Source of the DNA: Nitrospirota bacterium
Lineage (GTDB): Bacteria; Nitrospirota; Nitrospiria; Nitrospirales; Nitrospiraceae
Length of the DNA stretch: 64,000 nt
Reading direction: 5' to 3'
NCBI GenBank assembly: GCA_016207025.1
Contig: JACQQM010000014.1
Coordinates: 2,815 to 66,814 of the forward strand
A program made the translations under genes and the position numbers. Positions 14,853-59,938 of this stretch are shown here, one piece after another. Below the pieces are notes generated by a model. It did no database searches. It had not been told where the DNA came from and saw only the letters and a program-made list of their open reading frames with translations. Each line of letters opens with the position of its first letter. Position 1 is the stretch's first letter.

Positions 14853-16202
14853 ATGCGCAAGCTGTTTGGCACAGACGGAATTCGGGGCATCGCGAATCTC
14901 GAACCGATGACCAGCGAGACCGCCATGAAGGTCGGGCGGGCCGCTTCGTACCTGTTCAAGCGGCGGGCGGGTCGCCATCAAATCGTGATCGGCAAAGACA
15001 CGCGCCTGTCGGGTTACATGCTGGAATCGGCTCTGACGTCGGGAATTTGCTCGATGGGCGTGGACGTTCTCTTAGTTGGCCCCATGCCGACCCCGGCCAT
15101 CGCATTCCTGGCCAGAAGCCTCCGAGCGGATGCGGGGATCATGATTTCGGCCTCGCACAACCCGTACCAGGACAATGGTATCAAGTTTTTCTCGAACGAT
15201 GGGTTCAAACTCCCCGATGAATTCGAAGCCCGTATGGAAGAGATCATGACCTCCGATGAAATCGAGCACTTGCGCCCGACGGCGGACGCGGTGGGCAAAG
15301 CGTACCGGATCGACGACGCAGAAGGCCGGTATATCGAGTTTGTCAAACGCTCCCTGCCTAAGGACCTGGACTTTCAAGGCTTGAAGGTCGTCGTGGATTG
15401 CGCCAACGGCGCGGCGTACAAAGTGTCTCCGAAAGTCTTGCGGGAGCTGGGCGCCACCGTGTGGGTGATTGGTGACCATCCGGACGGCACCAACATCAAT
15501 GCCGGTTGCGGCGCTGTGCATCCTGAACAGCTCCAGCAAGCGGTGCAGGACCACCAGGCCGACATCGGGATCGCCCACGATGGCGATGCGGACCGGGCTG
15601 TCTTTGTGTGCGAACAGGGGCAGATCGTGGATGGTGACCACGCGATGGCTGCCCTCGCGCTCGATCTACACGAACGCGGCCAACTGAAGCAGCGCACGGT
15701 GGTCGGCACGGTGATGAGCAATTTCGGCCTCGAGCAGGCGCTGGCAAAGGCCGGCATTGCGCTGGTCAGAACGCCGGTTGGAGATCGGTATCTGCTGGAA
15801 CGGATGGTTGCGGATGGCTACAACTTCGGCGGGGAGCAGTCCGGCCATCTTATTTTCTTGGATCATAATACGACGGGCGACGGGCTCATATCAGGGCTTC
15901 AGATTCTGGCCCTCATGAAGCGGACCGGTCGGCGGTTGTCGGAGTTGGCCCGCTGCATGACCGCCGTACCGCAGGTGCTGCTCAACATACGGGTGAAGGC
16001 CAAGCCGGATCTCGCTGGGCTGCCGGACATCCAGCAAGCCATTCAGAAAGGAGAAGCCAGTTTAAACGGGACCGGACGGGTGCTCGTCCGATATTCGGGC
16101 ACGGAGCCGCTGATCCGGATCATGGTTGAAGGAGAACAGGACTCGCTCATCCGCTCGGTTGCCGACGAGTTGGCCAGCGCGCTCCGCGCACGTCTCGGAT
16201 AG
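14853..16202 (+). CDS. glmM: Phosphoglucosamine mutase
   Basis: [12 protein letters not shown] start, phosphoserine loop [20 protein letters not shown], and GGEQSGH. Confidence 0.95.
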
Positions 16203-16264
16203 CATCCACGGGACCCATGACGCCGCGGACCGACAGAGCACTGAATCACATCTGAGCATGTCAG

Positions 16265-19045
16265 ATGGACTCTCCCGCCTCTGAACATCGCACAGTCTTC
16301 ATCAGCTATGTCCGATATCCACCCGAGCATGCAGCCCGCGTACAGGACCTCGCGAACCGCCTGCGCGCCAAGGGGATCGATTGTCGCATCCCCGAGGACA
16401 CACACTCTCCTTCGCAAGAACAATCGTCGTGGCTAGCCGATCAGATACACGACGCTGATGTCGTGCTGGTGGTCTGCACCGAAGCTTTCACTGTTCGTTT
16501 TCATGGCAAGCGAGGGAACAGAAGCAGCGGGGGTGCCACCCCGGAGGGGGTTGTTCTCACCGAGGAACTCTACGAAGCCGAACCCAATAAAGCCAAATTC
16601 ATTCCGGTGCTCTTGTCTTCGCAAGATTGGTCCCATGTTCCCCCCGTGCTTCGGAAGGGCCCACGGTACAACCTCGACACGCCCGAGGGCTGCGAGGCTC
16701 TGATCCTCCGTCTTTCCCAGCCACTCCACCCTCCAACGCCAGAACGAATCACCGTGGCCACGACGCCTGGACCGGAAGACCCGGGGGATCCTGAGGCCGT
16801 TCCGTGGAATGTGCCGTACTGTCGAAACCGGTTTTTTACCGGCCGGGAGGAGGTTCTCGATCAAATGCAGAAGAACCTGGCATCGGCCGGGGCAGCGGCG
16901 TTAACGCAACCTCGTGAGATCGGCCGGTTCGGCGGCATCGGCAAGACGCAGACCGCCGTTGAGTACGCCTATCTCCATCGAGGGCAGTACCGGGCCGTGC
17001 TCTGGGCAAGGGCCCATTCGCGCGACGCGCTTGTGGCCGATACGGTCGCTACCGCGAGACTGGTGGGCCTGCCGGAGAAGCCGTCCCAGGCTTCCGGTTC
17101 CTCGGTCGCCGCCGTCAGGCGTTGGCTCGAACGCACCGCCGGCTGGTTGCTCATTCTCGACAGCGCCGACGATCCCGCACTGGTCGAGGACCTCGTCCCC
17201 CGAGGCCACCGGGGACATCTCTTGCTCATCTCGGGACCACAGGGCTGGGACGGAGTGGGTGTTGCGAATCCGATCGTGGTGGATGCGTGGCTTCCCGTCG
17301 AGGCGGGGCAATTCCTCCTGAAACGCACGGGGCGACAGGACCTTCAAGGGGCTGAGTCTAACGCCGTCGACCAACTGGCTCAAGAACTCGACGGGTTGCC
17401 GCTGGCCCTTGAACAGGCCGGCGCCTATATCGCCAAGTCGCAGTGCGACTTCCAGGAGTATCTCTTCCTCTATCGCAGGCACGGTCTCGATCTAATGGAA
17501 AGGCCCGGTTCAGTGACAGGAAAGTATCCGCCGCCGGTGGCCACCGCCTGCTCCTTGACGATCGAACATGTGACCCAACAGTTCCCCGCGTCGGCGGATC
17601 TCCTGCGGGCGAGCGCCTTTCTCGATCCAGACGCAATCCCGCTTGAACTCATCGCTCGCGGGTGTGAGGCGCTCGGCCCCTCGTTTGTCGCCTCCCTGTC
17701 CTCAACCTCTGTCGGCCAGCCTGCCTTGGAAGAAGTTCTCGAGCCGCTGGTTGACTACTCCCTCGTCAGCCGTACCTCCGATCCTCGCACCTACTGCATT
17801 CACCGCTTCATCCAGGCCGTGGTCAGGGACAGCCTGAGCAAAGCCGTGCAACGGCAATGGGCCGAACGAGCCGTGCGAGCCATGGAGCGCGCATTTCCTG
17901 AGGTCGCGCTTTCAACGTGGGACCTCTGTGAACGGTTCCTGCCCCACGCGGAAGCTTGTGTGACCCTCATCCAGGCCTGGGATGTGAAATGCGAAGAGGC
18001 CGAGAAATTGTTGACTCGGCTCTGGGAATATGCGCGTCAACGTTCAGGGGAGGCTCATGCTGCCCCGATCGAGGGCCCTGTGCCCGCCGGCGAGGAGGCG
18101 GCGCTCCTTACACCTGATCCATGTGAGGCTATGCTGGGCCCTGCGGACGCACCAGGGCCGGCTCCCGCCATAGAGCCAGCGCCGCCGAGTGACCACGCAC
18201 CGGCAGCCCCCCAGAACCTGGCGGGGGAAGCGGAGCCCCTTGTCGAGCAGACTCAACAACTCGAGACGCCGCTCCCGGTCCCGGACGCCCCGGTACCTGT
18301 GGATCCCGTCCCGCCGGGCTCGCCAGCGATTGTTCCGGTGGAGGGGAGTCAATCACCCGCCATGGCTACCATGGCTACAGCCGAGCCAGCACCGGAACCA
18401 AGAGCAGAAGACATGGCGGCCTTCCTCGAGAAACAGGCCGCTGACCACATAAAGGAAAACCGTAGCGCCGAGGCCATGAAGCTCTACAGGCGTTCGCTCG
18501 CGATCCGCGAGGAGGCCTTGGGACCGGACCATCCGGTTGTGGCATCCAGCCTGGACAAGCTGGCGGCGCTTTGCCTTGCCGAAGGTCGTTCCACCGAGGC
18601 CAAACAACTCTACAAGCGAGCACTGGCGATCCGAGAGAAAGTTCTTGGATCGGAACACCTGGACATAGCAGCTAACTTGGATAGCTTGGCGGCGCTGTGT
18701 CAAACTGCGGGGCGTGCCGCCGAAGCCAAGCAACTCTATACGCGAGCACTGGCGATCCGGGAGAAAACCCTGGGGCCAGACCACCCGGTCTTGGCAACCA
18801 ACCTAGACTGCCTGGCAGCTCTGTACAACCGGCAGGGCCGCTATGCAGAGGCCGAACGCCTCTACAAGCGGTCGCTGGCGATCCGGGAAAAAAACCTAGG
18901 ACCGAACCACCCGGACGTGGCGATTACCCTCAATCACTACATCACCCTTCTGAGGAAATGGAACAGGGATGCCGAAGCCTGCGTACTGGAGACCCGCGTT
19001 AAAAAAATCAGGCAAATGACTTCATCAGCACTTCTGAAGCAGTGA
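16265..19045 (+). CDS. TIR/SEFIR-like + NB-ARC (STAND NTPase) + TPR protein, candidate immune/abortive-infection sensor
   Basis: The N-terminus TVFISYVRY...WLADQIHDADVVLVVCTEAF is a TIR/SEFIR-type signature. NB-ARC hallmarks are the P-loop GRFGGIGKTQTA (~16931), Walker B LLILDSADD, and the GLPL motif LDGLPLALEQAG (~17393). A ~115-aa Pro-rich linker follows. The C-terminus carries 4.5 KLC-type 42-aa TPRs (LYKRALAIREKxLGxxHP). Confidence 0.8.
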   Translation: MDSPASEHRTVFISYVRYPPEHAARVQDLANRLRAKGIDCRIPEDTHSPSQEQSSWLADQIHDADVVLVVCTEAFTVRFHGKRGNRSSGGATPEGVVLTEELYEAEPNKAKFIPVLLSSQDWSHVPPVLRKGPRYNLDTPEGCEALILRLSQPLHPPTPERITVATTPGPEDPGDPEAVPWNVPYCRNRFFTGREEVLDQMQKNLASAGAAALTQPREIGRFGGIGKTQTAVEYAYLHRGQYRAVLWARAHSRDALVADTVATARLVGLPEKPSQASGSSVAAVRRWLERTAGWLLILDSADDPALVEDLVPRGHRGHLLLISGPQGWDGVGVANPIVVDAWLPVEAGQFLLKRTGRQDLQGAESNAVDQLAQELDGLPLALEQAGAYIAKSQCDFQEYLFLYRRHGLDLMERPGSVTGKYPPPVATACSLTIEHVTQQFPASADLLRASAFLDPDAIPLELIARGCEALGPSFVASLSSTSVGQPALEEVLEPLVDYSLVSRTSDPRTYCIHRFIQAVVRDSLSKAVQRQWAERAVRAMERAFPEVALSTWDLCERFLPHAEACVTLIQAWDVKCEEAEKLLTRLWEYARQRSGEAHAAPIEGPVPAGEEAALLTPDPCEAMLGPADAPGPAPAIEPAPPSDHAPAAPQNLAGEAEPLVEQTQQLETPLPVPDAPVPVDPVPPGSPAIVPVEGSQSPAMATMATAEPAPEPRAEDMAAFLEKQAADHIKENRSAEAMKLYRRSLAIREEALGPDHPVVASSLDKLAALCLAEGRSTEAKQLYKRALAIREKVLGSEHLDIAANLDSLAALCQTAGRAAEAKQLYTRALAIREKTLGPDHPVLATNLDCLAALYNRQGRYAEAERLYKRSLAIREKNLGPNHPDVAITLNHYITLLRKWNRDAEACVLETRVKKIRQMTSSALLKQ
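18467..18970 (+). repeat. Four tandem 126-bp coding repeats (TPR units) inside the STAND gene
   Basis: Units start at 18467, 18593, 18719 and 18845 (exact 126-nt phase), with a partial fifth from 18971. Long identical stretches include CTCTACAAGCGAGCACTGGCGATCCG. Confidence 0.9.
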
Positions 19046-19189
19046 CAGTCTTAATCCTTGCGGATCAATCCAAGCGGTCAGGAAAGTCTTCCATTCCGTC
19101 GGTCACTCTGCGATCCAACCGGCCAGGCTGCCCCACAGAACTCACAGTTCGCTCCGGGGTGCCCTACCATTTGTTGAGTAATTTAATAG

Positions 19190-19218
19190 TTGATTCCTAC
19201 AACATATTGTGGTATCGT
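19190..19218 (+). promoter_or_regulatory. Possible extended -10 promoter upstream of the first ExeA-like gene
   Basis: TTGATT (19190-19195), 17-nt spacer ending in TGg, then TATCGT (19213-19218). It lies in the AT-rich gap. Confidence 0.3.
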
Positions 19219-19352
19219 CCAGCCCGTTCTTCTCTTCAACCAGGCAGCATGCAGTCCTGTTTCCTGAATTTTTCATGGTGTCCGGTTAGGGAGATGGCCC
19301 TTCGCTCAAGAACAGAATAGGAGCACCACATCTTATCACCCTGACAAGTGAG

Positions 19353-20903
19353 GTGATGAGAATCGTGTCAGATTGTGAAACCCACGTAGTCATGCCCGAG
19401 GCAAAGTGGGCTCCGTATATGCGTATCATCGGGCACGGCTTTGTAACCGGCAGCATCCTCGCCGTCGTAATGGGTTCCTGCCTCATCTACCACCAGATCT
19501 CTCCCGGCACGTTTGGGCTATGGGTCAAGTATCAGTTGGCAAAAAGTCTCCACGCCGCCGGGTTTCAGCAGTATCTGCTGACGTGGCCGTCAGGGTCTGG
19601 CCACATCACCGTGTCAACTGAAGCGATTGCCTTGGCGCAGAGTCTTCAGGCTTGGTCGCGGGAAGTGCTCAACGATGTGTATGCCGTGAGCCTGTTCACG
19701 TTCGCCAATGCCGTGTTGGCCTCGGTGATTGGAGCCATCGCAGCGGCCCTATGCAGCCAAGCCCAGCAGGGGGCTCATCCCTGTCCCGCGTCTAGGCCGA
19801 TCACGGATCAGCGAAACCGATCCGTGCGCCCGCACGCCTCGAGCGCCAAGCGGGACGATCAGAGCGAGAGCCTCCTCGCGCAGCAGAACCAGCACTACGA
19901 CACTCCGCCCGTCAATCAATCCGACTGCGCGGTCCCTGTTTCTATCGACGATGCCAGCGCCATTGGACAAAGCCAACCACGCGAGGAACCGGCTGAGCGC
20001 CAGAGGACCGATCTCGACCGACTCTCCGCTCTCCCGAAGCTCAGCGACTATTATGAGAAGTACTGGGAACTCCAAGAACTGCCGTTTGAAAACACCCCTG
20101 ACCCGAAATATTACTTTCCCTCGCCCAATCACGAAGAAGCTCTGCATCGCCTGTTGTACGGCATACAGACTCGAAAAGGGGCCGTGATGCTGACCGGCGA
20201 AATCGGCTGTGGCAAAACGTTGCTGAGTCGAACCGTGATCCAGCATCTGGTGACTCAAGACTATGACACCGCCGTCATCGCCGATCCGTCGTTTGGAAGC
20301 ATGCAATTGCTCAGGGAGGTGTTGTACCAACTGGGCATTGATGCGACCGGGAACAACGTGGACCTTCGCCACCGGTTGAACGATCGCTTGCTGGAAAATC
20401 TGAAGAGGGGGCAGGACACCGTTCTGATCATTGACGAGGCCCAGGCGATTCGGGATGACGATATGTTCGAGAGGCTTCGGCTCCTGCTCAATTTTCAGTT
20501 GAACGAGCGGTTTTTATTGACATTGCTGCTGCTGGGGCAGCCAGAACTGAAAAACCGGGTCAAGACAATTCCGCAATTCTACCAGCGGATCGCGATTCAC
20601 TATCACCTTGGCCCGTTCTCAGCGACCGACGTGGCTGACTATATCCAGTTTCGTTTGAAGGTCGCCGGAAGCAGTCGGCGAATTTTCCGGCCGGACACCT
20701 ATCCCCTTATTTACCGATTGAGCGGAGGGGTGCCCCGCAAGATCAATACCTTGTGCGATCTCTGCTTGCTGGTCGGCCGCCTCGATCACGCAAAAACCAT
20801 CGATCGCGCCATCGTTGAGCGGGTTGCCGTGAAAGTCACCCATGGAGTGGGCCTGCATCATAGGATGACAGAGTCCCGACCCGTTCCGGTGGAAACACAG
20901 TGA
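19353..20903 (+). CDS. Membrane-anchored GspA/ExeA-like AAA ATPase (secretion/EPS-locus type)
   Basis: The N-terminal ~240 aa have 2 TM helices and a disordered linker. The C-terminal domain has P-loop GEIGCGKTLLSR, DEAQ box LIIDEAQAI, and LLGQPEL. The start is uncertain (19353, 19392 or 19419). Confidence 0.75.
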   Translation: MMRIVSDCETHVVMPEAKWAPYMRIIGHGFVTGSILAVVMGSCLIYHQISPGTFGLWVKYQLAKSLHAAGFQQYLLTWPSGSGHITVSTEAIALAQSLQAWSREVLNDVYAVSLFTFANAVLASVIGAIAAALCSQAQQGAHPCPASRPITDQRNRSVRPHASSAKRDDQSESLLAQQNQHYDTPPVNQSDCAVPVSIDDASAIGQSQPREEPAERQRTDLDRLSALPKLSDYYEKYWELQELPFENTPDPKYYFPSPNHEEALHRLLYGIQTRKGAVMLTGEIGCGKTLLSRTVIQHLVTQDYDTAVIADPSFGSMQLLREVLYQLGIDATGNNVDLRHRLNDRLLENLKRGQDTVLIIDEAQAIRDDDMFERLRLLLNFQLNERFLLTLLLLGQPELKNRVKTIPQFYQRIAIHYHLGPFSATDVADYIQFRLKVAGSSRRIFRPDTYPLIYRLSGGVPRKINTLCDLCLLVGRLDHAKTIDRAIVERVAVKVTHGVGLHHRMTESRPVPVETQ

Positions 20904-20997
20904 TATCGTTCCTTCCAAAACCCCTGCTTGACAGCTCCTGAAACCTTTCATCGTGAGGTTTCCCCTTTCTCCAGGGGTGCTTGCGTTGTGAGTTCCC

Positions 20998-23550
20998 ATG
21001 CTCCTTCCTCTCGCGATTGCCTTTCTTGCCGGCTTGGTCCTCGGCTCCTACCTTCCCTATCTTCCTTCTGTTGCTCTCTTGATCCTCGCGCTGACCGCCG
21101 CTGTCCTCACTCGCCTTGAATATCTAGGGCGGATGACGGTGCGCCAGAGCACCGTCGTCTACGGCGCCCTCTCGGCCGGCCTGATTTACTGGACAGTATT
21201 TAGCTGGGCGACGTCGGGTTCGAACCTCATGGACCGGGCTGGCAGCAATCCGATCAAGTGTATGGGCGTCATCGTGGAGCCTGTGCAGCGCGCTCCGGGG
21301 CGTACGGTCATGGCGCTGTCGATGGTCCAACTCGGCGAAGGGCATGCGGCCGTTCCGGTTCGGGGCAAACTCCGCCTGACCTGGCGAGAGCCGGATCGAA
21401 CGTTCAGACAAGGCGATCAAGTTGCGTTTCTCGCTCGGGTGCGTGCTCCGTCCGGAACCATGAACCCCGGGGGATTCGATTTCGGGGCCTATCTGAACCG
21501 GCACGGGATTGACGCGGTTGCATCTGTATCCGGTCCGGGTCAGGTCACCTTGCTCAGCTCGGCCACGCTACCGTCGCGGTGGGTATTCTGGGGAGCGATT
21601 GACGAGTGGCGTGCGCGCATCCACCAGGCTGCCGTGTCGACACTGGACGGTCCGGCGCTTGGCATCTACTTGGGCATCATCCTGGGAGAGCCAGGGTATC
21701 TTGCCCCTGAGGTCCGGGACGCCTTCATGACGACCGGCACCATTCACATCCTTTCGATCTCGGGGTCACACCTGGGTTTGATCGCGTTGCTCTCGTTCTT
21801 CCTCGTCAAGTGGACCTGCCTCCATCTGCCAGCAACCTGGTTGCAAACACTCTCACGCAGGACGACGCCCACGCGGCTCGCGGCTCTCATCACGATCGCC
21901 CCGGTCACGTTTTACGCCCTGCTTGCAGGAGCCGAAGTCGCAACGGTCCGGTCTCTGGTCATGATTTATTTCTTCCTGCTGGCAGTCTGGTTGGGACGGG
22001 AGGGAAAGCTGGTGCTCAGCTTAGCTGGCGCTGCGCTTGTCATTCTGGTTCATGATCCGCGTGCCCTGTATGATATCTCGTTTCAACTTTCCTACCTCTC
22101 TGTGCTCGCAATCGCGCTCGTGGCTCACTGGCGGAGTCACAGTGATCCGGATGGCTCCCTCGTCCCGAACTCAGGCACCCGACGATTCCTGCCTTGGATA
22201 CGCGACTACATCTGGATCTCGGTCGGAATCACGCTCACCACGCTTCCGCTCGTCGCCTATCACTTCAATCAGATGGCTTGGTTGGGACTCGGCGCGAACC
22301 CGATCGTCGTTCCGCTTGCGGGATTCGCGGTCGTACCGGTCGGGCTGGGATCGGCCATCTGGCTGCTGCTGACCGGAGGCGACACGCTACCGGCCGGCCC
22401 GGTCAACCAGTTCCTGCTCGATCTCATGGCCGGCGCGGTGAGACAGATGGCTCGTTTCCCGGGGGCCGAGTGGCATGTGGCCTCGCCCGCGATCCCCGCC
22501 ATCGCAGGCTTCTACGGCATGCTCTACGCCGCCAGCCGTCTCACCGGGAGCGCGCGAGTACGGTGGGGATGCACGTTCGGTACGCTGGCGGTGATCGGCT
22601 GGTGGGCATGGTCACCGCGCGGGCTAGATAACGAGACCCTGCGAGTGACCTTTCTCGATGTGGGGCAGGGCGACGCCTGCGTGGTCGAGCTGCCCGACGG
22701 CCAGACGATCTTGCTCGATGCAGGCGCGTCCTATGACACGCTGGATATGGGCCGCGTCGTGGTCGGACCGTACCTCTGGGATCGGGGCATCAGGCGCCTC
22801 GATCATGTCATAGGGACACATCCGCAGCTTGACCATGTCGGTGGCCTGCCGTGGATTCTTCGCACGTTTGAAATCGGCCGCTACTGGGGTAATGGAATTG
22901 AGCGGGACGAGGAGTTTTTTCGCCGGATCCGCAATGCGGTGCATGAGCGGAATATGACGGAATCCCGGGCGGAAGAGGGGCAGCTGATCATCTCGTCAGG
23001 CCCATGCCGACTGCACGTGCTGAATCCGCTCGCCATGAAACCTCTTTCCGGGGGCCCTGTCGCAAACCTGAACGCCAAGAGCGGAACAGCGTTGAATAAT
23101 CTCTCGGTGGTCACAAAGTTGGATTGCGGACCGCACTCGTTTCTGTTCACCGCCGACATTGAAACCGCAACCTTATCGCGCCTGAGCGACGCCAAACACC
23201 CTATTGAGGCTCATGTGTTGAAGGTGCCGCATCACGGGGCACGGAGCTCTCTCGATATTGGTTGGATTGGGCGGGTGCACCCAGACGTGGCCGTCATTTC
23301 TGTAGGACGCCATAACTCATACGGCCACCCGTCAGCGGCGGTCTTGAATGCGTATCAAAAAGACGGGGTGAAGCTCTTCCGAACAGACCGGCACGGAGCC
23401 GTCTGGGTGACGGCCAAGGTATCTTCGCCGCATCTCGAGATCCATGTGGCGCGGGAAGATCTGCCCCGGCCTGTCCACGTCGGTCCCTCCTTGGTCACAG
23501 CCGAACGCCAAAATCTGGCCAAACTGTGGAGCCAGTGGATGGGTCCCTAA
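20998..23550 (+). CDS. comEC: DNA internalisation-related competence protein ComEC/Rec2
   Basis: 850 aa with a polytopic competence domain and a C-terminal metallo-beta-lactamase domain (FLDVGQGDACVVELPDGQTILLDAG, GTHPQLDHVGG, LKVPHHG). Confidence 0.9.
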   Translation: MLLPLAIAFLAGLVLGSYLPYLPSVALLILALTAAVLTRLEYLGRMTVRQSTVVYGALSAGLIYWTVFSWATSGSNLMDRAGSNPIKCMGVIVEPVQRAPGRTVMALSMVQLGEGHAAVPVRGKLRLTWREPDRTFRQGDQVAFLARVRAPSGTMNPGGFDFGAYLNRHGIDAVASVSGPGQVTLLSSATLPSRWVFWGAIDEWRARIHQAAVSTLDGPALGIYLGIILGEPGYLAPEVRDAFMTTGTIHILSISGSHLGLIALLSFFLVKWTCLHLPATWLQTLSRRTTPTRLAALITIAPVTFYALLAGAEVATVRSLVMIYFFLLAVWLGREGKLVLSLAGAALVILVHDPRALYDISFQLSYLSVLAIALVAHWRSHSDPDGSLVPNSGTRRFLPWIRDYIWISVGITLTTLPLVAYHFNQMAWLGLGANPIVVPLAGFAVVPVGLGSAIWLLLTGGDTLPAGPVNQFLLDLMAGAVRQMARFPGAEWHVASPAIPAIAGFYGMLYAASRLTGSARVRWGCTFGTLAVIGWWAWSPRGLDNETLRVTFLDVGQGDACVVELPDGQTILLDAGASYDTLDMGRVVVGPYLWDRGIRRLDHVIGTHPQLDHVGGLPWILRTFEIGRYWGNGIERDEEFFRRIRNAVHERNMTESRAEEGQLIISSGPCRLHVLNPLAMKPLSGGPVANLNAKSGTALNNLSVVTKLDCGPHSFLFTADIETATLSRLSDAKHPIEAHVLKVPHHGARSSLDIGWIGRVHPDVAVISVGRHNSYGHPSAAVLNAYQKDGVKLFRTDRHGAVWVTAKVSSPHLEIHVAREDLPRPVHVGPSLVTAERQNLAKLWSQWMGP

Positions 23551-23820: not shown

Positions 23821-24648
23821 GTGCACTACGAAGACTACTGGGGGCTCAAACTGCCCCCCTTTGAAAATGTTCCCGATCCAAAATTTTATTTTCCCTCACC
23901 AAAGCACGAGGAGGGACTGGCAAGGCTGGTCTATGCCATTCAGGGGCATAAGGGAGCCGCCATGCTCACCGGCGAGATCGGATGCGGGAAAACAACGCTA
24001 TCCCGAAGGCTCCTTACCTACCTCACGCGGGGCCGATACGACACCGCTTTGATTGCCAACCCCTCGCTCGAGGCAACCGATTTCGTCAGGGAAATCTTAA
24101 ATCAGTTTGGGCTCAGCCAGAACAGCACAACAAAAGTGGAAATGTTGAACATTTTGAACGAACATCTCCTTGGCAACGGCAAGCGCGGCATCGACACCGT
24201 GATCGTCATTGATGAAGCCCAGGCCATTAAAGATGATACGGTGTTCGAAGAGTTGCGGCTCTTGTTAAATTTTCAACTGAACGAGCGCTTCCTGCTGACT
24301 TTGATCCTGGTTGGCCAGCCGGAACTGAACGAGCGGATTGCGGCGCTTCAGCAATTTTTGCAGCGAATCGCAATCCGTTACCATTTGCCGGCTTTCGATA
24401 TTCAAGAAACGACCAACTACATTGAATTTCGGCTTGAAACCGCCGGGAGCGATAAGCGCCCGATCTTTTCCGCCGAAGCGATAGCGACGGTCTTCCGGAA
24501 TTCCGGCGGTATTCCCAGGAGGATCAACACGGTATCCGACCTCTGCCTGCTGACCGGCTACCTGGAACGTAAGGCACAGATCGATGACGAGCTTGTGGAG
24601 CGCGTCGTCGCAGAATTTCACCTGGGAGATCAAAGTGGTACGGCTTAG
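23821..24648 (+). CDS. GspA/ExeA-like AAA ATPase, stand-alone paralogue (EPS-locus type)
   Basis: P-loop GEIGCGKTTLSR, DEAQ box VVIDEAQAI, and LVGQPEL. It is roughly half identical by eye to residues ~243-516 of the 19353 gene. It has a GTG start with no SD. Confidence 0.75.
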   Translation: MHYEDYWGLKLPPFENVPDPKFYFPSPKHEEGLARLVYAIQGHKGAAMLTGEIGCGKTTLSRRLLTYLTRGRYDTALIANPSLEATDFVREILNQFGLSQNSTTKVEMLNILNEHLLGNGKRGIDTVIVIDEAQAIKDDTVFEELRLLLNFQLNERFLLTLILVGQPELNERIAALQQFLQRIAIRYHLPAFDIQETTNYIEFRLETAGSDKRPIFSAEAIATVFRNSGGIPRRINTVSDLCLLTGYLERKAQIDDELVERVVAEFHLGDQSGTA

Positions 24649-50280: not shown

Positions 50281-51494
50281 TCATCTGTGCGGTGGTTGAC
50301 GTGGCGCCTCATAAAGTCATCCATGTGATCACGCGGCTTGATTGGGGAGGCTCGGCGCAGAATACCCTGCTTACAGCCGCCGGACACGATCGGTCTCGCT
50401 TCGACCCGATGGTGGTAGCCGGTCTGCCGGGTCCCTGGGACGCCCAGGGCGGAAACCGGGCGACCGACGAGAATCGCCGGCGGCTGGAGGCCATAGGAGT
50501 GCGGGCGGAAGTGATTCCAACCCTGACGCGTGAAGTCAATCCGCTCAAGGATCTCCGGACGCTGCGGCGACTCACGAGGTTGTTCCGCCATGAGCGGCCG
50601 GCGATCGTACATACCCATACCTCCAAAGCCGGTGTCTTGGGCCGACTGGCGGCATGGTTCGCGAAAGTGCCGGTTGTGGTGCACACCCCGCACGGCCATG
50701 TCTTTTACGGGCATTTTAACCGGATCCTGTCATGGATGTTTTTGCAGGTCGAACGCCTCCTGGCTACCGGCACCACCCGCATGATTGCCCTCACGGCGGC
50801 GGAGCGGGACGAACATCTGGATCGCAGAGTGGGAACACCGGAGCGTTTTGCGGTGGTGCCCAGCGGGATCGATGTGGACCGGCTCAAGTGCGTGGCCGGA
50901 GTGTATGGCCGGCATCCGGAGGGTTTCCGCTGTCCGCCCGATGCGGTCGTGGTCGGGTCGGTGGGGTGGCTTACCCCTGTCAAGGGACACCGATTCTTGA
51001 TCGAGGCCGTCGCCAGATTGAAACCATCGCACCCCAAGCTGTACACCGTAATTGTGGGAAGCGGGGACATGCGAACCGACTTGGCGGCCCTGGCTGAACA
51101 GCGGGGTGTGGGAGATTCGGTGCGGTTCTTGGGGGAACGGAACGATGTGCCGGAGTGCCTGGCGGCGATGGATCTGTTCGTGCTCCCCTCGCTCAACGAA
51201 GGCATGGGTCGGGCGCTGGTCGAAGCAATGGCGGCGGGACGTCCCGTCATTGCAACACGGGTGGGCGGCATCCCGGCGATCGTCGAAGACCGGCGCACCG
51301 GCTTGCTGGTGCCGCCCGGCGATCCCGCAGCGCTGGCGACGGCGATCGCCGAGCTGCTGCGCCGTCCTGACTGGGCAAAGGAGCTCGGGGCCGCTGCCAG
51401 CGTACACATCGATGCGCGATTTGGATGGGTGGCGATGGTCCGGGCGTTAGAAGCCGTCTACGAAGACGCCCTGCGCGAAGCACGTCTCACATGA
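50277..51494 (+). CDS. Family 4 (GT-B) glycosyltransferase
   Basis: VIHVITRLDWGGSAQN, and C-terminal EGMGRALVEAMAAGRPVIATRVGGIPAIV. The start is uncertain (TTG 50277 or GTG 50301). Confidence 0.8.
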   Translation: MIICAVVDVAPHKVIHVITRLDWGGSAQNTLLTAAGHDRSRFDPMVVAGLPGPWDAQGGNRATDENRRRLEAIGVRAEVIPTLTREVNPLKDLRTLRRLTRLFRHERPAIVHTHTSKAGVLGRLAAWFAKVPVVVHTPHGHVFYGHFNRILSWMFLQVERLLATGTTRMIALTAAERDEHLDRRVGTPERFAVVPSGIDVDRLKCVAGVYGRHPEGFRCPPDAVVVGSVGWLTPVKGHRFLIEAVARLKPSHPKLYTVIVGSGDMRTDLAALAEQRGVGDSVRFLGERNDVPECLAAMDLFVLPSLNEGMGRALVEAMAAGRPVIATRVGGIPAIVEDRRTGLLVPPGDPAALATAIAELLRRPDWAKELGAAASVHIDARFGWVAMVRALEAVYEDALREARLT

Positions 51495-53026
51495 ACCGAT
51501 CATTCCACCTCGGACTGTTCCTGGCATCCATGACACTCACCCTCGTCCCGGCATGGATCGGTCCGGCCCATAGCGCGGACGACCAGGGGGCTCCCCGCCG
51601 GCCTGTGGTCGCTGCGTTTCACGTTCACAGCACCATCAGCACCGGCAGTCTCAGCCTCGACCAGTTGGCCGAACGAGCCGAGCGGTTGGGGCTTGATGCG
51701 GTCATCCTGTCGGAAAATTTCGTCCTGCGCTACGAGTATGGACAGCTTCCGCTACGCGGAGTCCTCCGGAAAACCGTCACGCTCCCGTCAGTGCTCGATT
51801 ACGGAGTGGATCGGTTCCTGGCCGATGTCGCCGACGCACAAGCCCGCCATCCTCGGGTCCTGCTGATACCCGGGATGGAAGCGACGCCGCACTACTACTG
51901 GACCGGCTCTCTGCTCAACGGCGACTTAACCATGCACAATTCCCAAAAGAATGTGCTCGTCCTGGGGCTGTCTCGCGCCAACGATTTCGCGGCCCTGCCG
52001 GTCAACGGCAATCATGTCTCCTATCAATACGGGTGGGAAACGGCGCTGAACCTGACCCCAGGGCTCCTGTTTGCACCCGCCGCATGGCTCTGGCGGCGGC
52101 GGACCCATCGCACGATACAGGTTGGGGTGGCGCAGTATTCGAGTACGAGACGGTACCGGACTCCGGCGGTGGTGCTGGGCAGCGTCGGGAGCCTCCTGCT
52201 GCTGAACGCGTGGCCATTTGGCCAGCCGGTCTTTAGCATCTACAATGACCACCTCGGCTATCGGCCCTATCAACACTTCATCGATGCGGTGGCGCAGCGT
52301 GGCGGAATCGTCGTCTGGTCGATGCCCGAGGCGCGCGACTTCACTGTCCACTCATTCGGACCGATCGGATCGGTGACGATCAAGACCGACCCGTACCCCG
52401 AGGCTTTGCTGCTCACCGCCGGCTACACCGGGTTCGGCGGCGTCTACCAGGACACCCGCACCGTGACCCGGCCGGGCGGGGTGTGGGATGAGGTGATGCG
52501 GCGCCACCTCACCGGACAAAGGACCAGACCTCCTTTTGTATTCGGCGAAATCGCGTTCCACACGCCCGGCCAGGCCGGCATCGAATTGAACCAAGTGCTG
52601 ACCGTCTTCTGGGTCCGGGAACGGACCGCTGCCGGGATTGTTGAGGCCATGCGAAGCGGTCGTCTGTACGCCCTCGGCCAGTACCACAAGGAGTTCGGTC
52701 TGCGGCTGGATGCCTTCCAGGTAGAGTGCGAGGGCGGCGCGCGGTGGGCGGAGTCCGGTGAGACGCTGGATCCAAAACACGCCCGAGACCTGGCGGTGCG
52801 GGTCTCTGTCTCGGCCACTGACAAGGGCGCTCATCCAATCTCCGTGACGATCATCAGGACCGGCCAGGTGATCGCGCGTCTCACCGGTGAGACCCCGTTT
52901 GAGCATCGATTCTCGGATCAGCATGTGCCCGTGGGAGAGTGGAGCGCCTATCGGCTGGAAATTACCACCGGAGGCGGGGAGATCGTGAGCAACCCGATTT
53001 TTGTCAAACCAGTCCAGACGGGATAA
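51491..53026 (+). CDS. Secreted/membrane PHP-like metallophosphoesterase-fold protein, function unknown
   Basis: Signal peptide MNRSFHLGLFLASMTLTLVPAWIGPAHS-AD. PHP-type N-terminal motif AAFHVHSTISTGSLSLDQLAERAERLGLDAVIL. Two central TM helices. A C-terminal half ending RSGRLYAL. Start at ATG 51491 (ATGA overlap). Confidence 0.5.
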   Translation: MNRSFHLGLFLASMTLTLVPAWIGPAHSADDQGAPRRPVVAAFHVHSTISTGSLSLDQLAERAERLGLDAVILSENFVLRYEYGQLPLRGVLRKTVTLPSVLDYGVDRFLADVADAQARHPRVLLIPGMEATPHYYWTGSLLNGDLTMHNSQKNVLVLGLSRANDFAALPVNGNHVSYQYGWETALNLTPGLLFAPAAWLWRRRTHRTIQVGVAQYSSTRRYRTPAVVLGSVGSLLLLNAWPFGQPVFSIYNDHLGYRPYQHFIDAVAQRGGIVVWSMPEARDFTVHSFGPIGSVTIKTDPYPEALLLTAGYTGFGGVYQDTRTVTRPGGVWDEVMRRHLTGQRTRPPFVFGEIAFHTPGQAGIELNQVLTVFWVRERTAAGIVEAMRSGRLYALGQYHKEFGLRLDAFQVECEGGARWAESGETLDPKHARDLAVRVSVSATDKGAHPISVTIIRTGQVIARLTGETPFEHRFSDQHVPVGEWSAYRLEITTGGGEIVSNPIFVKPVQTG

Positions 53027-57962: not shown

Positions 57963-58385
57963 ATGACGGAGCGGACGCTTGCGATCATTAAGCCGGATGC
58001 AGTGAAGAAGAACGCGATCGGGGATATTATCCGACGATATGAGGCCGCTAGCTTGAGGCCAATCGCAATCCGGATGACGCGGATCTCGAAAGCCCAGGCG
58101 GAAGGGTTCTACGCCGTTCATCGGCAACGCCCGTTCTTCGAAAGCCTGACCACCTTCATGGCCTCCGGGCTGGTTGTGGTCCTGGTGCTCGAAGGTGACG
58201 ACGCCATCAAGCGCCACCGAGATCTGATGGGCGCGACCGATCCGGCCAAGGCTGATCCCGGCACCATCCGCGCGGTCTACGGAACGAATATCGAATACAA
58301 CGCCGTTCACGGCTCTGACTCTCCGGACACCGCCAAGTTCGAGATCGGCTTTTTCTTCTCCGAGATGGAGCTGGGTGTGCGGTGA
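57963..58385 (+). CDS. ndk: Nucleoside-diphosphate kinase
   Basis: [12 protein letters not shown], and the catalytic His context NAVHGSDS. Confidence 0.95.
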
Positions 58386-58441
58386 CTGACCGGAGCCGCG
58401 GCCATGAACACCCGGCTGTCCATCCTCAGGTCGCGCACAGC

Positions 58442-59938
58442 ATGATGGCCGGCTCAGCGCTCGGCCGGCCCTCAGCAAAGGCGTTTCAGTTCGCGCTCGC
58501 CCTACTAGCCGCCGTGCTGTTGTGGAGCGGCTGCGCTTCCCCGCGCGCCCCCTCCGCCCGCCTCCCGTCGTACAGCGATCCGAACGTCGAAGCCCAAGCC
58601 CGACTGCTCCAGCATGCACGCGCGTATCACACGCAAGGCCGGTACGAGCAGGCAGCCAAGCTGCTCCGAAACTTCATTCACACTTACCCGCGGTCTCCGT
58701 TTCTGACGGATTCGCGGTGGTGGCTCGCCCGCGTGTATGAACGGACGGGCGATCTGAAGGCGGCCCTCGCCCAGTATCGCATGGTGGAGCAAGCGGCCAC
58801 GGAGGCAACCACCCTGCGACAGGTGCGCAGCCGCATCGCTGAACTGGAGACGCTGCTGGGAGCGTCGAGCCTGAAATCCAACGGGCTCACCGGGCTTATG
58901 ATCCCATCGCACCGCCTGCCGGCAGTCCCGGATCTGGAAGAATGGCTGCGCACCCTGGCTCGCGCTGGCGTGACCACGCTGGTCCTGGATGCCTGGACGC
59001 GGCACGGCGTCACCCCCGCCGGGGTCTATTTCCGGACGGACCGAGCACCTGTCAATTGGGACATCCTCGGCCGACTGGTGCCGCTCGCGCACCAGCACGG
59101 CCTGGCGGTCTTTGCGGCCGTGACGCTGCGGCGGATGAACTGGCTGGAGCCCCCGCTCCAATGGAACGATTCTGCCTACGATCCAAGTAGCCGCCAACTC
59201 CGGCCAACGCCATACCTGGACATCTTCAATCCGGCCTTTCAGGACCATCTCATCAGCCTGCTCACAGATCTTGCCGCCTCGGGGGTGGACGGCATGCTGT
59301 TCCGCAGTGACGCCCCGCTGGGTCCGACCGAGGGATTCAGCGCCTTCGGGTTGCAGGGGTTCGAGCGGGACTTTCACATTCAGCTTGATCCCCTCAGGCT
59401 CTCCTGGCTCCCGGAACAGGAGGACCCTGCAAGCCGGTCCCCAAAGGCGTTGACCGCTCCCAAGCCGCTTCCGGAGTCGGCGCCGGAGTTCTGGCGTTGG
59501 TCGGGTTGGAAGGCCCGGGAGACGTTGAAAGTCATGGACCGGCTCAGACGCGCGTTGCGCGGGGCCTCACCCAAGCTGCAATTCGCGTTGGAAATCCATC
59601 CGGAAGCCGTCACTGATCCGGTCGAAGCGCTGGTGCGGTACGGAGAAGATTTGCTGGAGGCCAAACGCGGCCGGTTCGATTGTTACGTCGCGGGCTCGGG
59701 ACTGTCGAACACCCCGTCCGTACCCGGATCACTCGGCCAGGCGCGTGAGAATGGGCCGGCGATCGCGGCGCGCATGCTCGAATTACTCGGCGAACCGGAG
59801 CGAATTTGGGTGGAGGTTCCGCTGCCGGCAGGCGACCTCGAACGGGTAGGGGAACGGCTAAACCCGGCATCGGATCAAGCCGCCATGACCAAAGGGATCG
59901 GCTTGATTTACCTAGGAAATTCGGTTTCGCTTCCTTGA
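58442..59938 (+). CDS. Lipoprotein with TPR region and glycoside-hydrolase-like (PgaB C-terminal/GHL-type) domain, function unknown
   Basis: Lipobox LLWSGC after ATG 58442 (alternative GTG 58382 overlaps the ndk stop). YbgF-like TPR (YHTQGRYEQAAKLL...). A TIM-barrel-like segment LVLDAWTRHG...GLAVFAAV...GVDGMLF. Confidence 0.45.
   Translation: MMAGSALGRPSAKAFQFALALLAAVLLWSGCASPRAPSARLPSYSDPNVEAQARLLQHARAYHTQGRYEQAAKLLRNFIHTYPRSPFLTDSRWWLARVYERTGDLKAALAQYRMVEQAATEATTLRQVRSRIAELETLLGASSLKSNGLTGLMIPSHRLPAVPDLEEWLRTLARAGVTTLVLDAWTRHGVTPAGVYFRTDRAPVNWDILGRLVPLAHQHGLAVFAAVTLRRMNWLEPPLQWNDSAYDPSSRQLRPTPYLDIFNPAFQDHLISLLTDLAASGVDGMLFRSDAPLGPTEGFSAFGLQGFERDFHIQLDPLRLSWLPEQEDPASRSPKALTAPKPLPESAPEFWRWSGWKARETLKVMDRLRRALRGASPKLQFALEIHPEAVTDPVEALVRYGEDLLEAKRGRFDCYVAGSGLSNTPSVPGSLGQARENGPAIAARMLELLGEPERIWVEVPLPAGDLERVGERLNPASDQAAMTKGIGLIYLGNSVSLP

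Follow-up and report, generated by a model that had tools for sequence, protein, structure and literature searches.

At positions 16265..19045 of a 64,000-nucleotide stretch of a Nitrospirota genome (contig JACQQM010000014.1 of assembly GCA_016207025.1; hereafter the window), a single gene encodes a STAND protein of 926 aa in which a SEFIR head, an NB-ARC switch and an array of tetratricopeptide repeats (TPRs) follow one another. The gene and all of its features described below lie on the forward (+) strand. Its open reading frame begins with ATG, and the motifs quoted in an initial annotation of the sequence were found where they had been placed (TVFISY at residue 10, VVLVVCTEAF at 66, GGIGKT at 223, LLILDSADD at 295 and GLPLAL at 377). 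Pfam profiles matched SEFIR, TIR_2, DUF7779 (residues 441–526) and TPR_12, TPR_10 and TPR_NPHP3 (~736–884). Combined with fold comparisons, these matches bear out the effector-switch-sensor organization proposed earlier, and we regard the three-module SEFIR-NB-ARC-TPR architecture as practically certain. The protein is identical to the NCBI entry 'MAG: tetratricopeptide repeat protein [Nitrospirae bacterium]', and an exact look-up in the contig index found it not on record.

The gene stands alone, as had been noted, between glmM (end 16202) and a gene for an ExeA-like AAA_22 ATPase (start 19353). Upstream of it run tilS, hpt, ftsH, folP and glmM; downstream, the ExeA-like AAA_22 gene is followed by ComEC, a second ExeA-like gene, an HD-domain protein and a polysaccharide export/synthesis locus. 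We scanned GTDB species representatives with glmM (78 loci) and found the order tilS-hpt-ftsH-folP-glmM-ComEC in ~65 Nitrospirales genomes (glmM 74–88% identical), with a gap of ~10–120 bp between glmM and ComEC and no SEFIR, NB-ARC or TPR match within 10 kb in any of them. Because glmM directly precedes ComEC in these ~65 relatives, the window carries a two-gene insertion of 4.8 kb between the two (16203..20997, +), and that the STAND gene is an accessory insertion, the view taken by the initial annotation, is very highly probable. Two of the signs cited for it fared less well. The GC content of the gene (0.622) is not below that of its neighbors (0.575–0.638), only GC3 (0.681) being slightly lower, and low GC as a sign of foreign origin was rejected because the values are equal. 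A Shine-Dalgarno sequence of at least 4 nt is indeed missing before the gene, but this is not distinctive, since the ComEC and ExeA-like genes are equally weak.

The gene was acquired horizontally and stands on its own, as a member of a large, known prokaryotic family. At E ≤ 1e-6 it has more than 3,000 protein matches, of which the best 120 show 33–48% identity, mostly over ~98% of the length, share the annotation SEFIR/TIR_2 plus NB-ARC plus DUF7779 plus TPR and come from Acidobacteria, Ktedonobacteria, Binatia, Methanoperedens and ANME archaea. With over 3,000 full-length homologs, and a TIR-AP-ATPase-TPR layout that had already been described (Kaur 2020, eLife; Dyrka 2020; Johanndrees 2022), the suggested novelty does not hold: this is no new kind of system, its architecture, family and likely logic being on record. 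Homologs in Acidobacteria, Ktedonobacteria and Methanoperedens have unrelated neighbors, and the four homolog neighborhoods compared resemble neither one another nor the window, which fits a mobile single-gene unit. One ortholog was recovered, on Logan contig L001 (3219–5897, P0002), at the same site after folP-glmM; scans of JGI metagenomes with the single protein and with an alignment of the two orthologs returned no further orthologs.

The N-terminal module is a SEFIR domain (residues 9–150, 16289..16714), in agreement with its earlier reading as a TIR/SEFIR-type module. Pfam SEFIR (PF08357, STIR clan) matched residues 9–137 with 44.6 bits against a cut-off of 23, TIR_2 scored 37.5 bits against 28 and the PADLOC model for bSEFIR (PDLC03957) reached E 6.9e-23. 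Sequence searches of the PDB with phmmer led to the BcSEFIR entries 5y8e/5y8f (E 5e-7). With a model of residues 1–185 as the query, the top Foldseek matches were 9ot1, a helical SEFIR assembly of IL-17RA/RB/ACT1 (E 6e-7), and the Bacillus cereus SEFIR 5y8e (E 1.4e-6, TMt 0.71); TIR NADases (TIR-STING, SPARTA TIR-APAZ and AbTir) ranked after these SEFIR structures.

To place this head within its family, we compared the motifs of the window protein and its ortholog with those of 68 full-length homologs (alignment A1, 70 sequences). A candidate catalytic glutamate, Glu94 (codon 16544..16546), is kept in 70/70 sequences, is matched in the BcSEFIR alignment by the 'GTET' glutamate and sits at the N-terminus of a helix (93–104) in the model; the other invariant residues L33, W56, P114 and P126 are also retained. 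Around them, motifs that are otherwise 84–100% conserved across the family have been replaced. S-H-D-S (16–19) reads VRYP in the window protein and LSQL in the ortholog, D-Q-Y (43–45) reads PED and PEN, respectively, and both proteins have QEQ for E-G-W (51–53) together with the single replacements Y75 to F, G88 to S and W93 to P. The family residue D43, conserved at 100% and present as Asp in BcSEFIR, is thus a Pro in the window protein. Among the SEFIR columns conserved at 90% or more, the window protein keeps 25/36, compared to at least 26 (median 35) for the other members sampled, and the ratio of its SEFIR to NB-ARC identity is correspondingly low (z = −2.7). A scan of 1.8 billion representatives revealed no closer SEFIR subfamily (next best 36–50% identity). 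Because the 46 closest SEFIR domains, from many architectures, still have the canonical motifs, the state of this head is a lineage-specific derivation and not a domain swap.

An alignment to the SARM1 TIR domain by hhalign (probability 27%) pairs D43 with the BB-loop residue D594 and W93 with W638. This same weak alignment places SARM1 E642 on column 101; as that column is variable in the family, the equation of E642 with residue E101 was rejected, and Glu94 remains, on conservation, the best catalytic candidate. D43 may also correspond to D40 of bSEFIR. The search for a catalytic-site residue proposed in the initial annotation therefore had a divided outcome: the candidate glutamate is present, but 11/36 near-invariant SEFIR positions are lost, the BB-loop-aligned Asp included.

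The middle module comprises a nucleotide-binding domain (NBD; residues 186–330, 16820..17254) and an ARC part consisting of HD1, a winged helix and HD2 (residues 331–597, 17255..18055), within which Pfam DUF7779 covers 17585–17842. A model of residues 180–600 has a pLDDT of 90.5 and matched full-length, ADP-bound Apaf-1 best (3sfz, E 4.8e-11, TMq 0.74), followed by NRC2, the NRC1 NB-ARC, CED-4 and ZAR1. Because a confident model matches Apaf-1, NRC2 and CED-4, we assign the module to NB-ARC/AP-ATPases by fold; a phmmer search of PDB sequences with this region gave no match. Walker A (GGIGKT, residues 223–228, 16931–16948), Walker B (LLILDSADD, residues from 295, 17147–17173), the GLPL motif (GLPLAL, residues 377–382, 17393–17410) and an MHD-like His513 (IHR, 17801–17803) are all intact. 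The sensor-I (RNBS-B) motif T-S/T-R, where T322 occurs in 99% and R324 in 83% of the family, is replaced by 'ISG' (17228–17236) in both the window protein and its ortholog, and the window protein has two further replacements, G221 (99%) to R and N300 (98%) to S. Overall it keeps 64/72 conserved NB-ARC columns, inside the range of other members. The ortholog shows NB-ARC changes of its own: GLPLAL-EQ has become GLPLAF-EE, so that the 100%-conserved Q384 is lost, and DSADD in Walker B has become DSVDD. These substitutions are consistent with lowered constraint in both lineages.

Between switch and sensor lies a Pro/Ala-rich linker (residues 598–716, 18056..18412) of 119 aa with 24% Pro and 20% Ala, much as the ~115-aa proline-rich linker had been described. 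This disordered, fast-evolving and lineage-specific segment differs from the only ortholog by one 10-aa and one 44-aa indel. The Pro plus Ala fraction is 0.41 in the ortholog and has a median of 0.18 and a maximum of 0.27 in the homologs; such a linker occurs in none of the homologs sampled outside the lineage. The C terminus consists of five 42-aa TPR units of the KLC/NPHP3 type (18413..19042; TPR_12 170.9 bits, E 6e-51; TPR_10 120.9 bits; TPR_NPHP3 138.6 bits). The KLC type of the 4.5 repeats announced in the initial annotation is therefore right, but the units are not near-identical because they share only 73–76% identity at the DNA level, at a spacing of 126 bp, and TRF reported no array in the TPR and linker region. 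At ~210 aa the array is shorter than is usual after HD2, the homologs having a median of 355 aa (~8.5 units). It is presumed to be the ligand sensor.

Next, we estimated the ratio of nonsynonymous to synonymous substitution rates (dN/dS) from the window and its ortholog, a single pair, since the metagenome scans had yielded no others, with few substitutions per domain. The ratio was 0.10 for glmM, 0.15 for folP and 0.47 for the whole STAND gene, within which the SEFIR head reached 0.85, the NBD 0.49, the linker 0.43, the TPR array 0.34 and the ARC part 0.31. The SEFIR head thus evolves nearly neutrally. A neutral pseudogene was rejected: at the observed dS, neutral evolution should have left ~15 nonsense hits in the gene, yet it has none (P ~3e-7), so the protein is still under selection. 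The loss of 11/36 near-invariant positions, together with the dN/dS of 0.85, makes the NADase output of this copy doubtful, and the confident NADase reading of the initial annotation was given up; that the NADase is intact here is a tentative proposition, with the balance tilted against it.

Given the eroded head and sensor-I motif and the preserved frame, our preferred explanation, with a probability of roughly 55%, is an acquired sensor/switch that is still used and whose NAD+-cleaving output has been weakened or altered. It builds on what this copy displays: how its modules are laid out, its place in an accessory insertion, conserved effector and sensor-I positions that have eroded and a reading frame that has been maintained. 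For the family as a whole, analogy makes a role in conflict or defense likely, and this protein, too, is probably a conflict sensor. A mechanism can be drawn from Avs proteins, Apaf-1 and plant NLRs, bSEFIR and earlier comparative genomics, in which the C-terminal TPR array would bind a trigger, for example a protein or peptide that is non-self, such as one from a phage. Binding would free the closed, ADP-type conformation of the NB-ARC module, nucleotide exchange would lead to oligomerization and the clustered SEFIR domains would then cleave NAD+, causing growth arrest.

Several observations weigh against the preferred explanation. The NB-ARC assignment of the initial annotation stands by fold and motifs, and PF00931 is annotated for many homologs, but the Pfam NB-ARC model itself does not match the window protein at E ≤ 1. 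The N-terminal model is of moderate confidence only (pLDDT 71.8). In PADLOC, the bSEFIR model was matched at profile positions 38–178 of 412 only, a ThsB match was weak to marginal and no Avs model matched, so that the Avs-type assignment made earlier was not upheld; PADLOC found no defense genes adjoining the STAND gene, and the literature searched offered no characterized close relative of the protein. That the lost SEFIR residues would line the pocket rests on the SARM1 alignment of 27% probability. Finally, relaxed and diversifying selection cannot be told apart by a dN/dS contrast drawn from one pair, in which each domain has few substitutions.

The foremost alternative, which we consider unlikely, is that the gene is a fully functional, Avs-like antiphage sensor with an active SEFIR head, its fast evolution reflecting an arms race. 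In that case a derived SEFIR pocket would still cleave NAD+ or make a signaling nucleotide. In its favor, the invariant Glu94 is retained along with L33, W56, P114 and P126, the reading frame is maintained and Walker A, Walker B, GLPL and the MHD-like His are intact. Fast evolution is typical of immune genes, and the sensor-I Arg is also missing in 17% of the family. Against this, the changes fall at positions 90–100% conserved both in the family and in the 46 closest SEFIR domains of other architectures, and the two orthologs disagree at the former SHDS motif (VRYP versus LSQL). Arms races, moreover, usually diversify the sensor and not the effector core, whereas here the TPR array (0.34) is more constrained than the SEFIR head (0.85). 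An improbable alternative is that the SEFIR domain has been repurposed as a non-enzymatic part, either an oligomerization or adaptor scaffold as in Act1/IL-17R or a regulator. By fold the head is closest to the helical IL-17RA/RB/ACT1 assembly, and the pocket motifs are gone while fold core and frame are kept; yet no conserved partner gene lies beside the STAND gene or in the four homolog contexts, Pfam found no DNA-binding domain in the protein and a SEFIR dN/dS near 1 speaks against a newly constrained interface. Slightly less probable still is the specific form in which the head would be a naturally NADase-dead scaffold that signals through SEFIR-SEFIR assembly upon NB-ARC oligomerization. 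If true, prokaryotic NLRs would have their first case of adaptor-type SEFIR signaling, caught in the transition from enzyme to adaptor.

The neighborhood offers two further explanations, both ranking below the active defense gene and the adaptor SEFIR. Since both extra genes sit in one insertion directly upstream of the exopolysaccharide (EPS) locus, the STAND protein and the co-inserted ExeA-like paralog might form a regulatory pair for that EPS/PEP-CTERM locus. We find this very improbable: none of the four homolog contexts has an AAA_22 or EPS neighbor, the ortholog's contig ends before the expected position of the ExeA-like ATPase and the 307-bp spacer between the two genes suggests separate units. 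Least credible of all is a component of an FxSxx-COOH peptide-processing or VMAP ternary conflict system. This idea draws on the equivalog model NF040586 (NCBIfam FxSxx_TPR), which matches residues 187–595 with 288.1 bits, on the many homologs that NCBI names accordingly and on the TIR-AP-ATPase-TPR gene found downstream of FxSxx systems in actinobacteria (Kaur 2020). The score nevertheless stays under the curated cut-off of 300, and the adjacent genes encode GlmM, the ExeA-like ATPase and ComEC. Radical-SAM, metallopeptidase, vWA and MoxR genes are absent among the neighbors and downstream genes sampled, as they are from the four homolog contexts. With a score under the cut-off and no peptide-processing genes among the neighbors and downstream genes sampled, membership in an FxSxx system was rejected.

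The second gene of the insertion encodes the ExeA-like AAA_22 ATPase (19353..20903, +; 516 aa), which scores 215 bits with TIGR03015, under its cut-off. It has an N-terminal extension of ~230 aa with two hydrophobic segments and a low-complexity stretch, and its C-terminal half is 57–65% identical to the ATPase found after ComEC in the relatives. It is a paralog of the XrtA/PEP-CTERM-associated ATPase at 23821–24648 and is missing at this site in all relatives. Its candidacy as a defense partner was rejected, with no PADLOC support and no such neighbor in the homologs, and it probably does not work together with the STAND protein. The spacer that precedes it (19046..19352) is AT-rich, as described earlier, with a GC content of 0.50 versus 0.615 for the window; it shows no promoter- or terminator-like site and no Rfam match, and nucleotide similarity to the ortholog's contig fades within it. 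A repeat search found no border repeats of the insertion and no tRNA-like elements were found; an Rfam scan of 15900–21100 gave no match.

On the upstream side, identity to the ortholog's contig is ~85% in the 3' part of ftsH (dS 0.96) and 93–98% from ~13750 on, with dS of 0.11–0.15 for folP and glmM. The jump near ~13750 looks like a recombination breakpoint, and suggests an exchange of the folP-glmM-STAND block, by homologous recombination, between Nitrospirales lineages that had diverged. Beyond the insertion, ComEC (20998–23550, +) has a metallo-beta-lactamase (MBL) part that cross-matches the PADLOC models PDC-M48B, LmuA and RTasMBL (E 1e-8 to 1e-12), most likely reflecting the shared MBL fold and not a defense function. 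A long EPS locus of PEP-CTERM/XrtA flavor, all on the same strand, extends from 23821 to ~59000 and includes the ATPase, an HD-domain protein, Poly_export, a Wzc-like tyrosine kinase, Wzy, a flippase, an epimerase, two GT87 glycosyltransferases and an AsnB-like amidotransferase. Two open reading frames in or beside it (51425–53026, 533 aa; 58382–59938, 518 aa) have no Pfam match at E ≤ 1e-8.

The locus thus places an NLR-like, immune-type gene inside an otherwise rigid housekeeping order, in a group, the Nitrospirales, with few characterized defense systems. The contrast it offers between canonical and pocket-eroded SEFIR heads is a natural one and could reveal which residues SEFIR NADases need.

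Among known systems, the window protein is closest in layout to the 'all-in-one' TIR/SEFIR-AP-ATPase-TPR proteins (Kaur et al. 2020; Dyrka et al. 2020), which have the same three-module architecture and NB-ARC motifs and which NCBI often names 'FxSxx-COOH system tetratricopeptide repeat protein' (NF040586); more than 100 of the homologs listed are 35–48% identical to it across ~98% of the length. Unlike these, the window copy has a derived SEFIR head, the 'ISG' motif, a unique Pro/Ala linker and a shorter TPR array, and unlike FxSxx systems it has no FxSxx, VMAP or peptide-processing genes nearby among the genes scanned. With bSEFIR of Bacillus sp. NIO-1130, a single gene reported to give antiphage defense and to deplete NAD+ through its SEFIR domain, and whose D40A mutation abolishes defense (Millman et al. 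2022, preprint), it shares the N-terminal SEFIR domain and the single-gene organization; beyond the SEFIR domain the window protein is unrelated, and the full-length profile match fails. Avs (AVAST) proteins have the same effector-STAND-repeat logic in a single gene, and those with STAND and TPR-like sensors carry NADase heads (SIR2, TIR or NIR), whereas the window protein matches no Avs1–5 profile and has an NTPase whose fold is of the NB-ARC/Apaf-1 type. Apaf-1, CED-4 and plant NLRs share with it the NBD-HD1-WHD-HD2 fold (WHD, winged-helix domain), the P-loop, Walker B, GLPL and the MHD-like His; it differs from them in sequence, with ~15% identity, in falling short of the Pfam NB-ARC model and in its absent RNBS-B TTR motif. 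Plant TNPs (TIR-NBARC-TPR; Johanndrees 2022) follow the same TIR-NB-TPR order, but the head of the window protein is a SEFIR domain and not a plant-type TIR.

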